A DNA stretch of 64,000 nucleotides, taken from Dictyostelium discoideum. Its lineage: Eukaryota. Position numbers and translations under genes: made by a program. Shown here in pieces: positions 21,094 to 35,501 of this stretch. Within the stretch, counting starts at the first letter, position 1; every line of letters starts with the position of its first letter. The stretch is from the NCBI GenBank assembly GCA_000004695.1, contig CM000152.2:864001-928000 (forward strand), in the 5' to 3' direction. The notes under the pieces were generated by a model, which was given only the letters and a program-made list of their open reading frames with translations, had not been told where the DNA came from and made no database searches.

Positions 21094-22826
<1,733 letters not shown>

Positions 22827-26637: not shown

Positions 26638-29525
<2,888 letters not shown>

Positions 29526-31357
29526 TTTTTTTTTTTTTTATTTGTTTGTTTGTTTTTTTTTTTTTTTTTTAGTGTATACTTTTTTAAATATTTTAAATTA
29601 TATTTTTACTATTATTTATTTTATTTTTTTTTTTTACTTTTTTAATATATTATTGTTTTTATTTTTGTATTATATTTTGTGTGGTGATTTATGTGTATAA
29701 ATTTTAAAATAATAAAAAAAAAAATAAATAAGAAAAATGATGGAATTAAATGATGGTTATTACAAAAAAAATAAAAAATAAAATAAATAAAAAAAAAGTA
29801 AAACTAAATTTAAATTAAAAAATGCCTATATTATTATTATTATTATTATTATAATTTGTAAAAAAAAAAAATATATGTGTGTTTAGTGTGGTGGGTGATA
29901 AAAATTGGGATATATAATAGGTCTATTTTGGTTATTTTTTTTTTTTTTTGATGTGTTTATAAATAAAAATTTTATTGAACCAAAAAAAAAATAAAAAAAT
30001 AATAAAATAAAAAGAATAAAAAAATAATAAAAAAGGAATTATGAAAACAAAAACAAAAAAAAAAAAAAAAAAAAAAAGTAAAAAAAAAAAAAAAAAAAAA
30101 AAGTTGAAAATTTGACGTTTTTTAAATATTTTTTTAGCAATCTAGATTTCAAAAAACTTTTTTTTATTTTTAGCAACAATTATGACAAAAACGAAAAAAA
30201 AAATAAATAAAAAAAAAAAAAATAAAAAAAGATGAAAAAGTTGGATGGTTTGGCATTGAGCAATGGTTTTTTTTTTGTCATATTAAACGTTGTAACATTA
30301 CACAAAAATTATCAAAAAAAAAAAAAAAAAAATATTGTTATTGATCACTTAAATTTCGAATAATCATTTAAATATTCTTGAAGTTTTAAAACCAATATCA
30401 TATAGGTTATGTTTTTTTACAATTAAAAAAAAAAAATAATAATAAAAATAATAATAAAAAAAAACAGATAATAATTTAAAACATCTTGTCATATTTTTTT
30501 TTAATTTGATGTTTATAAATCTTTTTGATTATTAATAATATTTTTTTTTTTTTTTTTTTTTTTTTTATTTTTAAAAATTGATATTATTATATATTCATTA
30601 GAAATAACTATTTTAAATGATTTTAATTCAAATATTATGAATGGTGGTGGATCAATTAATATGCTATTTAAAAAAATAATGGTAGAATATTGATAATAAT
30701 TATTATGATTGTAATGAATTGATTTAAGATACTTCAATAATTTATCCACCACTTTAAAATTATAATCAAAAATCAAAAACATTTATTTCAAAAAAAAATT
30801 AGAATAATAAAGAATATCTCATTATTTTACAAATTTGTAAACACAGTAATATATATATATATATATATATATTTGAAAGCCTGTATCAATGATAAAACAG
30901 TTTTTTTTTTATTTTTTTATAATTTTTTTTTTTATTAGTATAATAAATAAATATTATCTATCTCTTTTATTCATTTATTTTTTTATTTTTTTATTTTTAA
31001 CTTTTTATTTTTTTATTGTTTTTACTTTTTTTTGAGTATTGGTGATTTAAATTATTGTCACCACCTCCTCTAATTAAATTTAGAATTGAAAGATTTTATT
31101 CATTTAGAATAGAAGTTGGTACACTGGTATGAGTTACCAATTCAGTTTTACTATTTGTGATTCTATGAGTTGTTGCATACAAACTTTTATAAGTGAAAAT
31201 GCATAATCTTCTCATGTAAGGATAATACGATTGTTGAACAGTTGGTTGAGTTGAATCGATTTAAATTACTGATAATTGAGTTGAAATGGTTTGAATTACT
31301 GGTGGTTGATTTGAATTTGTTGGGGGATTACTGTTGTTTGATTATACATTGGATTAT

Positions 31358-31484
31358 CAAGATTGAACATGATTATTAGAATCTAAAATAGTTGAGTTGA
31401 TCTTCAAAAACAAAAAAAGTTTTAAAAGTTCAGCTATGCTATTAACTCAACTATTTTAGATTCTAATAATCTTGCTCAATCTTG
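31358..31484. repeat. Imperfect 41-bp inverted repeat (39 of 41 positions match, extendable to about 48 bp) with a 45-bp spacer. It is a candidate transposon or MITE remnant, or a hairpin-forming element.
   Basis: Left arm caagattgaacatgattattagaatctaaaatagttgagtt; right arm aactcaactattttagattctaataatcttgctcaatcttg. Confidence 0.6.
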
Positions 31485-31570
31485 ATCATCCAATGAATAG
31501 CCTAACAGTAGTGATCCCAACAAATTCAACCCAACCACCATTAAAATTATAGGGTTTTGTTTTAATTTAA

Positions 31571-31571
<1 letters not shown>

Positions 31572-31630
<59 letters not shown>
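31572..31630. repeat. (ATT)n microsatellite of about 20 units, intergenic.
   Basis: Read directly. Confidence 0.8.
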
Positions 31631-31631
<1 letters not shown>

Positions 31632-32404
31632 ATTATCAAAACTTAACTCTCTGATGCATTAGTAGTTGTAGTATTAATTGTTGGTTCAGTTGAAAATGGA
31701 TTTCTACTATTATTATTATTGAATGAATAATTTGGACTATAAATTTTTGAAGAAAAATAAATAAATAAAAAAATTAGTTAAATTAATTATTGTGGTGATG
31801 GTTGGCTATTGACATAATTTGAAAAATAAAAAAAAAAAGTTATTTCTATAGAAAATGCAAGAATAAAAAAAAAAAAAAAATAACAATAATTATAATAAAA
31901 AAAAAAAAGTAATAAGAAAAAAAGATAACCATCTAGAACAAAGATAATTTTTTATATTTTTATACTTTTTTTTTAATGTTTGAAATTTTTAATATAAAAG
32001 GATAAAAAATAAAACAAATAAAAAAAAAATAAAAAAAATATAAAATTGTTTTTTGAAATAAGAGAAAATAAATAAAATTTTAATATAAATAATTAAGTTA
32101 AAATAAAACAAACTTAAATTTAAAATAAAAAAAATAAAAAAAAAAATTTGTTTAGATAAAATAAAAAAAAAATAATTACTCGACTCATCGATAGTAGTTT
32201 ATTATCAATCACATACTTTGAACCAAATAAATTTCAAGTTTATCAAATGAATCTTATAATGATCATTAAAAAAAAAAAAAGAAAAGAAAAAATAAAAAAT
32301 AAAAAATAAAAAATAAAATAATTGTAGATTCTTTTTTTCAATGTTTTTCTTTTTTTTTTTTTTTTGTTAATTCTTTCCTTTTTTTTTTTTTATTTTTTTT
32401 TTTA

Positions 32405-32436
<32 letters not shown>

Positions 32437-32587
32437 TATAAAAAAAAAAAAAAAATTACGATTATTTTTCCCTTGATTGATATTTTATAACAAAAACGAT
32501 AAAAATCAATTAATTACACAACAACAGTTCACTAATATCTTTTTTTCTTTTTTATTTTTTATTTTATTTTTTTTATTTTTTATTGTG

Positions 32588-32660
32588 ATTGGTTATTTTA
32601 ATTGATTGTAACCATACTATTAACCAATGAAATTAAATAAAATCTAAGCCAATCAATCAA
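32588..32660. promoter_or_regulatory. Cluster of three CCAAT/ATTGG boxes (gtgattggtta, ttaaccaatga, agccaatcaatc), about 200-260 bp upstream of the Ras-like GTPase start.
   Basis: Read directly. CCAAT is the NF-Y site, and NF-Y subunits are encoded in Dictyostelium. Confidence 0.3.
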
Positions 32661-32853
32661 CAAAATATCTAAAATCTTTTTTTCATTGAAAAAAAAAATG
32701 GGCTTGGTCTAAAAAATATAAAACCTTTCGACTTTTCATTTTTCTTTTTTTTTTTTTATTTTATTTTTTATTTATTAAAAAAAAAAAAAACCCTAAGACG
32801 ATAAAAAAAAAAACATACAAAAAAAAAAATAAAATAAAATAAAACAAATAATA

Positions 32854-33725
32854 ATGCCAAAAGCAACATTTAAAATATTATTAATAGGAGAAACTCAGGT
32901 TGGTTGCTCGACAATATTATCTCAATTTAAAAAATCCTATGCCACAGAAAAGTAATTATTTTTTTTTTTTTGAAAAAAAATGAAAATAAAAATGAAAAAA
33001 AGGGGGCGAAACTTAAACCAAAATTTTATTCATATTATTAATTGAATAATTTTTATTTTTTATTTTTTATTTTTTATTTTTTTTTTTTATACATTAAAAG
33101 AAATGAAAATAAATTTGGAACATTGAATAAAAATAAAGAAAAACCTAAAGAAGAAAAAGATAAAGTTGAAGAAGAAGAGATAAAATCATTTAAACAAATT
33201 GTCTATCATGAAAATACAAAATATATGTTAGATATTATAGATCATAAATTCATAAATCAAACTATAGAAGAAGGACAAGAACAACAAGAACAACAAGAAC
33301 AAAACACAAATTTACCATTTGAAGATTTTATTAAAGAATTTCATGGATTTATATTGGTTTATGACATAACAAAATTATCAAGTTCAAAGAAATTAAAAGA
33401 AATGTACGAATTGATTAATAAAAACAATCATTGTAATTATAGATCAATTTTATTAATTGGTAATAAGAATGATTTAAAAGATGAAAGAGAAATAACTTAT
33501 AGTCAAGGTGAAGAATTTGCAGAGAATTTTGATTGCCTGTTTTCTGAAATATCCTCAAAAGATATGATTCAACTTGATTCTGCTATCACCTCTTTAATTA
33601 CTGATTTGGTAACAAAAAGGTATGAAAGTATGACAATTACAAAACAATCTTCCTCAAAAAGTAAAAAAAAATTCATATTACCTTTTAAAAGTGGTTTATC
33701 AAATAGAAATTGTAAATTTATGTAA
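32854..33725 (+). CDS. Divergent Ras-superfamily small GTPase, candidate pseudo-GTPase, about 241 aa. Structure is join(32854..32951, 33101..33725). The P-loop has Cys in place of the invariant Lys, switch II is degenerate, NKxD and SAK-like motifs are intact, and there is a C-terminal CaaX-like CKFM.
   Basis: Exon 1 is MPKATFKILLIGETQVGCSTILSQFKKSYATEK with a GTAATT donor. Exon 2 (227-aa ORF frame after an AAAAG| acceptor) reads ...YMLDIIDHKF...FHGFILVYDITKLSS...ILLIGNKNDLKDEREITYSQGEEFAENFDCLFSEISSKD...NCKFM*. Confidence 0.6.
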
Positions 33726-34125
33726 AAAAAAAAAAAAAAAAAAAGATTTATTTATTATGTAGAATTATTTTTGGAAAATTTTTAGTGGAAAATAATAATA
33801 AAAAAAAAAATAAAAAATAAAAAAAAAAAAAAAATAATAAAAAAAAAAATATCCAAGATTTCTTTTTTTTTTTATAATTTTTTGATAGCAAATTAATTTT
33901 AATGAATAATTCAAATATTTTATTTTAGTTTTGGTTATTTTTTTTAAAAATAAACTTATTTCGATTACTGCAAAATAATAACTCTGACCACACAATTTAT
34001 TTTTAATCGTTATAATAAAATTCATATTTTTTTTAATATTTAGATTCTTTATTTGAAAAAAATTATTGAGATTAATATCCTTTAAGATTCTATCAAATTA
34101 AAAAAAAAATAAAAAAAAAAAATAA

Positions 34126-34166
<41 letters not shown>

Positions 34167-34174
34167 GATTTTAA

Positions 34175-34207
<33 letters not shown>

Positions 34208-34274
34208 GTATATATTTTTAAAAAAAAAAAAAAAAAAAAAAAATAGAAAAAATAATATTTATATAATTAAATTT

Positions 34275-35501
<1,227 letters not shown>

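Follow-up and report, generated by a model that had tools for sequence, protein, structure and literature searches.

PseudoGTPases have the fold of a guanosine triphosphatase (GTPase), and they are divided into proteins that bind nucleotide without hydrolysing it and proteins that are nucleotide-free (PMC10211241). The gene described here lies at positions 32854-33725, on the plus strand, of a 64,000-nucleotide (nt) stretch of Dictyostelium discoideum AX4 DNA (contig CM000152.2, positions 864,001 to 928,000, assembly GCA_000004695.1; hereafter the window). It encodes a Ras-like protein of 240 amino acids (aa) in which the invariant lysine of the P-loop is replaced by a cysteine. By the sequence definition, the protein qualifies as a candidate pseudoGTPase: it has a G-domain fold, its G1 and G3 motifs are non-canonical, its G2 appears disrupted, and these features are evolutionarily conserved. 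A preliminary description of the locus, made from the DNA letters and their translations, had already taken the product for a pseudo-GTPase, and this view gains weight from the purifying selection found on the motifs in three species.

Like the Entamoeba proteins EhRabX3 (PDB 5c1t and 5c1s) and EhRabX10 (a 'pseudoRab'), the protein is amoebozoan, lineage-specific and Rab-like, with non-canonical G motifs. EhRabX3, however, is a tandem protein of two G domains, and the lysine is kept in both of its P-loops. EhRabX10 lacks the G2 threonine and has a degenerate G3 (DTQDME), but it keeps G1, and its G4 (TKAD) and G5 (SSQ) are altered (PMC8514894); the present protein shows the opposite, a broken G1 with intact G4 and G5. 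As the identity is limited to the C-terminal half, the Entamoeba RabX proteins are not orthologues. A natural and conserved replacement of the P-loop lysine is shared with the IRG 'GMS' subfamily (Irgm1-3, GX4GMS), in which the lysine has become methionine, correlated changes occur elsewhere in the G domain, and the proteins are regarded as GTPases that work by a mechanism of their own (PMC1297648). Unlike the dictyostelid protein, these are vertebrate, interferon-induced, p47/dynamin-like proteins of ~47 kDa with helical domains, with methionine instead of cysteine, and without a CaaX box.

Rnd1-3 and RhoH, listed as pseudoGTPases acting as allosteric regulators (PMC10211241), are small Ras-superfamily proteins without cycling, as is predicted for the present protein. 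They belong to the Rho family and carry its insert helix, which is absent here. Their CaaX box ends in methionine, and they are farnesylated and constitutively membrane-bound; they keep the P-loop lysine, the switch I threonine and the DxxG motif, are changed in the catalytic residues only, and show tight binding of GTP. In the RGK proteins (Rad, Gem/Kir, Rem, Rem2), G3 (DxWEx) and G2 are non-canonical, there is little or no switching, and a basic C-terminus binds the membrane. The G domains of Rem1 and Gem are among the Foldseek matches of the present protein (2nzj, 2ht6); RGK proteins differ from it by their canonical P-loop lysine, the lack of a CaaX box and long N- and C-terminal extensions. 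In CENP-M and in the pG1 and pG2 domains of p190RhoGAP, essentially all G motifs have been lost, and these proteins are not known to be lipidated. The present protein, on the contrary, keeps G4, G5, the Mg-binding serine, the beta3 aspartate and a CaaX box. The likeness would lie in the use of the G-domain fold as a non-catalytic scaffold (PMC10211241; PMC5593906), and CENP-M and pG1/pG2 bind no nucleotide (PMC10211241). Judged by its motifs, the protein resembles atypical or pseudo small GTPases yet belongs to none of the families compared. No described counterpart with G1-G3 broken, G4 and G5 intact and a CaaX box plus polybasic tail was found in the literature.

The locus is an already annotated AX4 gene, and the annotated model is reproduced exactly: the spliced product is 100% identical to XP_642372.1 / EAL68397.1 / Q54Y30 (Q54Y30_DICDI), labeled "small GTPase" by NCBI and "small monomeric GTPase" by UniRef. 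The reading frame starts at the ATG at 32854 and is interrupted by one intron (donor GT at 32952, acceptor AG at 33099-33100); it ends at the TAA at 33723-33725. The features of the gene are as follows, where pLDDT is the predicted local distance difference test score of AlphaFold2 and GC the guanine plus cytosine content:

32854-32951, plus strand: exon 1, 98 nt, codons 1-32 plus 2 nt of codon 33, encoding beta1, the P-loop and alpha1
32887-32910, plus strand: G1/P-loop GETQVGCS, residues 12-19, with Gly12, Gly17 and Ser19 kept
32952-33100, plus strand: intron, 149 nt, GTAATT...AAAAG, GC 12%
33101-33725, plus strand: exon 2, codons 33-240 plus the TAA stop codon at 33723-33725
33101-33182, plus strand: insert 1, residues 33-60, K/E-rich, at the switch I/G2 position, pLDDT <50 for residues 32-58
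33240-33254, plus strand: G3 equivalent D80-H81-K82-F83-I84, replacing D-x-x-G-Q, aspartate retained
33264-33314, plus strand: insert 2, residues 88-104, a Q/E-rich low-complexity loop in switch II/alpha2, pLDDT <50
33462-33473, plus strand: G4 NKND, residues 154-157, a canonical NKxD invariant in all orthologues
33552-33560, plus strand: G5 SSK, residues 184-186, canonical (SAK in D. citrinum)
33657-33671, plus strand: polybasic patch K-S-K-K-K, residues 219-223, in the disordered hypervariable tail, conserved in all orthologues
33711-33722, plus strand: CaaX box C237-K-F-M240, codons identical in five genomes, TAA directly after

In an alignment with about 70 canonical homologues, 30 columns are conserved at 75% or more. 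At these columns, the protein keeps Gly12, Val16, Gly17, Asp80, Gly115, Tyr120, Thr123, Leu151, Gly153, Asn154, Lys155, Asp157, Leu158, Arg162, Ala173, Glu182, Ser184, Lys186 and Cys237, and it loses the P-loop lysine and the Gly and Gln of DxxGQ. Cys18 (codon TGC, 32905-32907) stands in the place of the lysine, and the canonical GxxxxGK[ST] is not found; Ser19, the Mg ligand directly after the missing lysine, is retained. The P-loop had been read correctly in the preliminary description as GETQVGCS with a Lys-to-Cys change, which is conserved in five genomes, and the NKND (154-157), EISSK (182-186) and CKFM (237-240) motifs named there are all present. Lysine occupies this position in 152 of the 163 Walker-A matches across 162 retrieved proteins, and four of the other 11 are the cysteine of the present family. 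One further protein without the lysine (P0063, GDGSVGQS) is otherwise fully canonical (DTAGQEEY, NKCD, SAK, CaaX), and the second G domains of two tandem proteins, P0040 and P0042, read GDPRAGNS and GNENAGVS. In the sequences retrieved, lysine-less P-loops in Ras-like proteins are rare but recurrent.

Switch I, on which the preliminary description was silent, appears to be disrupted by a K/E-rich insert of 20-30 residues that is predicted to be disordered and located between a conserved NKFGT[LI]NKNKEK segment and strand beta2. Its length differs among species, with a (KE)n repeat in D. firmibasis, while the NKFGT[LI]NKNKEK part is conserved. No threonine directly precedes beta2 (EEEEIKS); the conserved T40 of FGT[LI] sits 20-30 residues upstream of that strand. 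A charged linker between the two exons had been pointed out before, and it is indeed present at residues 44-59.

In switch II, the sequence is D80-H-K-F-[IV]: the Gly60 equivalent has become Phe and the Gln61 equivalent Ile or Val, hence neither DxxG nor the catalytic glutamine is left. This segment is taken as the equivalent of DxxGQ because Asp80 aligns with the invariant aspartate and ends strand beta3. The degeneracy of switch II claimed earlier stands, but the register does not, as the 'DIIDHK' proposed as the DxxGQ equivalent is three residues off D80-H81-K82-F83-I84. A displaced DxxGQ was also considered, MAFFT having paired the 'GQE' of AX4 (residues 91-93) with the canonical GQE; it was rejected, because this GQE is absent in D. 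citrinum and D. firmibasis and lies within a neutrally evolving Q/E run. From the sequence, every element sensing or attacking the gamma-phosphate (P-loop lysine, switch I threonine, DxxGQ) appears gone or broken.

The match to the Pfam Ras family (PF00071) has an E-value of 2.8e-21 and scores 76.2 bits against a cut-off of 21.6; its best stretch covers residues 107-202, and a weaker second stretch is N-terminal. The AlphaFold2 model of the 240-aa protein (mean pLDDT 71, predicted template modelling score 0.68) follows the canonical G-domain order, beta1-alpha1-beta2-beta3-(alpha2)-beta4-alpha3-beta5-alpha4-beta6-alpha5. The modelled elements are beta1 (residues 4-12), alpha1 (18-30), beta2 (62-69), beta3 (72-80), beta4 (115-121), beta5 (148-154), beta6 (179-182) and alpha5 (191-217). 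Most core blocks from residue 111 on have a pLDDT of 83-94, and residues 32-58, 88-104 and 216-240, with a pLDDT <50, are probably disordered. Foldseek against the PDB returned Rab1, Rab3, Rab14, Rap1, Rit1, Rab43 and K-Ras with E-values of ~1e-13, at 20-25% identity and with target-normalised template modelling scores of 0.75-0.87 to Rab/Rap/Ras structures. Among solved structures, the closest by sequence is EhRabX3 (E = 4.8e-15), ahead of Rab43, RhebL1 and Rap2A. The Ras/Rab fold recognised in the preliminary description is hence borne out by profile and model alike, the predicted structure being that of a Ras-superfamily G domain.

The assignment to Ras or to Rab is ambiguous. Rab proteins are characterised by the motifs RabF1-F5 (IGVDF, KLQIWDTAGQE, RFRSIT, YYRGA, LVYDIT). 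Here, RabF5 is present (GFILVYDIT, residues 115-123), and RabF1-F4 are absent or unrecognisable. The Rab-type C-terminal CC or CxC is absent, with a single CaaX-type cysteine (CKFM) instead. The Ras/Rap effector loop YDPTIEDSY and DTAGQEE are both absent, and the CaaX box is present. Both kinds of tail, CC/CxC (Rab-like) and CaaX (Ras-like), occur among the nearest database homologues.

Five genomes were compared: AX4, a second D. discoideum strain, two assemblies of D. citrinum, and D. firmibasis. The protein search gave relatives in the second strain of D. discoideum (94% identity) and in the two D. citrinum assemblies (80-82%); beyond those, it gave ordinary Rab/Ras proteins at no more than 29% identity. 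A hidden Markov model (HMM) scan of 1.84 billion cluster representatives likewise found one family cluster and then ordinary Rab/Ras proteins; the matches at its top, which consist of 3-5 stretches, were set aside as canonical Rabs that are tandem or mis-assembled. The D. firmibasis orthologue was found by following the downstream neighbour (L004 12488-13381, GCA_036169595.1 CM069765.1). This syntenic gene, which is called on the contig, encodes 247 aa; its intron (150 nt) has the position seen in the other orthologues, and no Pfam match is on record for it. The protein search had not returned it, and as it was found through synteny only, absence from the protein search does not mean absence from a species. 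Outside D. discoideum, D. citrinum and D. firmibasis, no orthologue was seen by protein search and HMM scan. The comparison points to a young, lineage-restricted and highly diverged Rab/Ras-like paralogue.

The flanking genes are collinear in all five genomes. The comparison with dictyostelid orthologues, proposed as a check in the preliminary description, shows the same exon 1, the same intron position and the cysteine in all of them. The introns, 166, 126 and 130 nt long in the fetched loci, are 62-77% identical with many indels, versus 86-97% identity in the exons. All five sequences contain G[ED]T[QN]VGCS, DIIDHKF, NKND, EIS[SA]K, KSKKK and CKFM. Cys18 is encoded by TGC in D. discoideum and by TGT in D. 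citrinum and D. firmibasis, a synonymous difference. Since three nucleotide substitutions separate AAA/AAG from TGT/TGC, the P-loop lysine must have been lost long ago in this lineage. Two database models of the orthologues, P0002 (356 aa; L003 6001-8210) and P0004 (293 aa; L002 6001-7823), are annotation artefacts, because both loci encode ...NRNCKFM followed by TAA and the models splice past this stop into downstream sequence or the next gene.

The selection on the gene was estimated by the Nei-Gojobori ratio of non-synonymous to synonymous substitution rates (dN/dS, or omega). Between AX4 and D. citrinum, dN/dS is 0.14-0.17 (dS 0.42-0.52, p about 1e-12 to 1e-14), and between AX4 and D. firmibasis, it is 0.22 (dS 0.53, p 3.5e-10); across all comparisons, it ranges from 0.14 to 0.24 with p<1e-9. 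Residues 1-32, comprising beta1, the P-loop and alpha1, have an omega of 0.12, and residues 61-87 (beta2-beta3-DHKFIN) show no non-synonymous and four synonymous changes relative to D. citrinum. The Q/E insert (88-104) has an omega of ~1, with indels, in three of the four species comparisons; between AX4 and D. firmibasis, the value is 0.2, with a saturated dS. The substitution patterns indicate that the whole protein, deviant motifs included, is under purifying selection. Taken together, the sequence comparisons exclude a sequencing error, a strain-specific mutation, a pseudogene or a non-coding exon 1.

The window has a GC content of 23%, with 10-15% in intergenic DNA, the locus being extremely AT-rich, as in dictyostelids. 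The exon junction 32951/33101 of the earlier gene model is correct, as it yields the product identical to XP_642372.1 and comes from the only frame-open pair that retains the P-loop: the frame-preserving, stop-free GT..AG pairs other than 32952/33100 delete residues 17 onward, including the P-loop and alpha1. A 227-aa open reading frame (ORF) from 33042 runs into the intron and is an artefact of mechanical ORF calling. The preliminary description would have been overturned by another first exon supplying GxxxxGK[ST] or by a non-coding region upstream of 33101. No such motif, and no second GTPase-type Walker A, is present on either strand of 27000-34500, where the remaining Walker-A matches are a Gly-rich run in the adjoining gene and one chance match. 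Exon 1 has a coding pattern: its alignment to D. citrinum is gapless, with an identity of 87.8% and with 7 synonymous and 4 non-synonymous changes. The intron, in contrast, has an identity of 62-69%, and 17-33 positions of its alignment are gaps. No non-coding RNA scored above noise at the locus in the Rfam and tRNA scans.

All dictyostelid small GTPases were catalogued by Forbes et al. in 2021 (PMC8923023). Their Table S1 contains several "Rsm" (Ras superfamily member) genes listed as D. discoideum-only among five genomes, including rsmC (DDB_G0278449), and the Arf-family gene DDB_G0278443 is listed near rsmC in the order of identifiers (PMC8923023). No Ras-like paralogue was found elsewhere in the window, the single further match being an Arf-like gene at ~21.85-22.82 kb. 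Its Arf/Arl-like G domain (21094-22823, plus strand; tblastn blocks 21853-22035, 22336-22641 and 22755-22823) lies inside or next to a 538-aa ORF, ~10 kb upstream of the GTPase gene. This is probably the conserved Arf-family gene DDB_G0278443 of Forbes et al. Because this neighbour fits and because of the D. discoideum-only listing, the mapping of the present gene to rsmC (DDB_G0278449) is probable. An exact look-up of ten neighbouring ORFs for confirmation of the dictyBase identifier returned no match.

Our favoured reading, to which an even chance is given, is that of a switch-dead pseudoGTPase in which a guanine nucleotide, bound less tightly than usual, would still serve as a structural cofactor. 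A CaaX box with methionine as X directs farnesylation, and K-Ras4B and Rnd3 are precedents for a farnesyl group plus a basic patch at acidic membranes. In the same way, Cys237 would be farnesylated, and the farnesyl group and K-S-K-K-K would tether the protein to acidic membranes. The G domain would neither hydrolyse GTP nor toggle between GTP and GDP (guanosine tri- and diphosphate) conformations, because with the Gln61 equivalent, the Gly60 amide and the switch I threonine lost, the water would be unpositioned and the gamma-phosphate uncoupled from the switches. The loss of the P-loop lysine would weaken phosphate binding, and a guanine nucleotide, most plausibly GDP, would still be held via the base contacts (NKxD, S[SA]K), Ser19-Mg and Asp80 (water-mediated Mg). 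These G4, G5, Ser19 and Asp80 contacts persist despite an identity of 20-29% to any canonical GTPase. The earlier statement that loss of the lysine abolishes nucleotide binding is too strong: since G4 (NKxD), G5 (S[SA]K), Ser19, the P-loop glycines and Asp80 are intact, and since the IRG GMS proteins set a Lys-to-Met precedent, the loss of binding is not certain.

At the membrane, a switch-dead protein of this kind would be a constitutive adaptor or, alternatively, a decoy that engages a regulator of canonical GTPases, and such a role is plausible. Partners would most likely be bound constitutively at the invariant beta2-beta3-DHKFIN surface. They are unlikely to be canonical effectors, because the K/E insert replaces the effector loop. 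That the deviant P-loop and switch II are so strongly constrained speaks for the gain of a function, not for decay.

Several points weigh against this picture. The P-loop lysine is the main beta/gamma-phosphate ligand, and nucleotide binding could vanish completely with it. G4 and G5 lie in the better-conserved C-terminal half of the protein, and their retention may reflect structural inertia. The support for the intron junction is comparative. Phe is unusual at the a2 position of a CaaX box, and prenylation is a sequence prediction. The three species are close, so conservation specific to the motifs is inseparable from overall conservation. The literature adds little: if the gene is rsmC, its row in Table S3 gives no function, localisation or interaction (PMC8923023), no paper was found under the UniProt, RefSeq and GenBank identifiers of the protein, and the rsmC or DDB identifiers were not found in the main text of any paper.

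If the nucleotide were lost altogether, the protein would be a class I pseudoGTPase of the CENP-M or p190RhoGAP pG1/pG2 type, a nucleotide-free scaffold whose prenylated fold is purely an interaction module. Such a protein is the main rival to the favoured reading, if rather doubtful: three of the five G motifs are non-canonical, the P-loop lysine is nearly universal among the homologues, and the class is an established one (PMC10211241; PMC5593906). However, G4 NKxD, G5 S[SA]K, Ser19, Asp80, Gly12 and Gly17 have stayed intact at ~20-29% identity, and according to the example of the IRG GMS proteins, a lysine-less P-loop need not mean a nucleotide-free protein. The known class I pseudoGTPases have generally lost G4, G5, the Mg-binding serine, the aspartate and the P-loop glycines as well, which also counts against a nucleotide-free scaffold. 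Conversely, the protein could be an atypical but active GTPase, in which Lys82 (at the position of Ras Ala59) or another residue replaces the P-loop lysine, and GTP is bound and perhaps hydrolysed. Position 59 of Ras adjoins the gamma-phosphate (A59T autophosphorylation). Lys82 and His81 are invariant in the five genomes and belong to a segment in which D. citrinum and D. discoideum have the same amino acids. There are documented cases of pseudoenzymes with migrated catalytic residues (PMC10211241), and P-loop-adjacent cysteines give Rho GTPases redox sensitivity (PMC13236570). An active enzyme is nevertheless unlikely, as there is no equivalent of the catalytic glutamine (I84/V84), no DxxG glycine and no positioned switch I threonine; the other lysine-less homologues P0063, P0040 and P0042 are without a matching lysine at the position 82 equivalent, and the role of Lys82 is purely conjectural. 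By analogy with the WNK kinases, whose catalytic lysine has migrated (PMC10211241), one might imagine a 'with-no-lysine' small GTPase that still binds and possibly turns over guanine nucleotide, with Lys82 as the phosphate ligand and Cys18, in the phosphate pocket, making binding redox- or modification-sensitive, and this we consider quite improbable; to our knowledge, such a rewired active site has not been described for the Ras superfamily.

Two simpler explanations for the deviant motifs fare much worse. A duplicate in decay (already a pseudogene, or soon to be lost), with motifs drifting under relaxed constraint, would agree with the narrow taxonomic range (one HMM cluster, and rsmC being D. 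discoideum-only in the list of Forbes et al.) and with the neutral evolution of insert 2. The ORF, the splice sites and the position of the stop are, on the contrary, intact in five genomes and three species, and with a dN/dS of 0.14-0.24 (p<1e-9), the P-loop and DHKF are among the most constrained parts. This very improbable reading is effectively refuted by the selection analysis. The other explanation, an error in the gene model or in the sequence by which another first exon or a misread base hides a canonical GxxxxGK[ST], is scarcely credible and, within the reach of sequence data, refuted. It could invoke the shortness of exon 1 (98 nt) and a junction that rests on comparative data, but it meets with the lack of any other GTPase-like Walker A on either strand of 27000-34500, with the recurrence of exon 1, Cys18 and the intron position in four independent assemblies, with the coding substitution pattern of exon 1, and with the three nucleotide changes that separate Lys from Cys.

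The surroundings of the gene were also inspected. In the 3.3-kb gene-free gap upstream of it lies a long, near-perfect inverted repeat (31296-31544), with arms of 29 and 78 nt, 86-90% complementarity and a 39-nt loop; the folding energy of its inner 181 nt is -71 kcal/mol (z = -12.5 vs. shuffles). It is located on a local GC bump (0.25-0.30 vs. ~0.12), followed by an (ATT)n microsatellite at ~31570-31630. No ORF of at least 50 aa, no tRNA and no Rfam match above noise was found in the repeat. A diverged copy exists in the second D. discoideum strain, and the repeat is absent in D. citrinum. It could be a source of hairpin RNA or a transposon remnant.

In D. citrinum and D. firmibasis, paralogues of a poly-N/poly-S family (617-746 aa) are found on both sides of the GTPase gene (L001 3335-5410; L002 3235-5451; L004 10001-11956). 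Of the upstream copy, both D. discoideum strains have kept no more than a remnant of ~290 base pairs (window 30554-30843). Downstream, a 408-aa ORF of this family (34275-35501, plus strand) contains runs of ~40 Asn and ~50 Ser. No AX4 protein covering it was returned by the protein search at E≤1e-20. The similarity of this gene to the 746-aa D. citrinum gene extends to ~36170, and from 34275 onward, the AX4 copy may carry an interruption or have another gene model. On the minus strand, the gene upstream (28245-29525, 26638-27747) starts with MGNSHSS, a possible N-myristoylation signal, and continues with low-complexity tracts and then leucine-rich repeats (LRR). We take it to resemble the Dictyostelium 'mpl' LRR-phosphatase genes.

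The gene itself was already annotated and its kind already known; what is new here is the recognition of a conserved, selected, lysine-less protein that is not a switch. The "small GTPase" annotation is probably misleading, because the sequence is almost certainly incompatible with a switch enzyme. The narrow taxonomic range limits the general impact, unless the active site proves to be rewired. The protein is nonetheless a compact, recent and genetically tractable example of an atypical G protein, in an organism with good knock-out and imaging tools. It would offer a natural test of the importance of the P-loop lysine when the guanine-base motifs are intact. For the dictyostelids, it would mean that their large species-specific expansions of small GTPases (PMC8923023) include non-switching derivatives.

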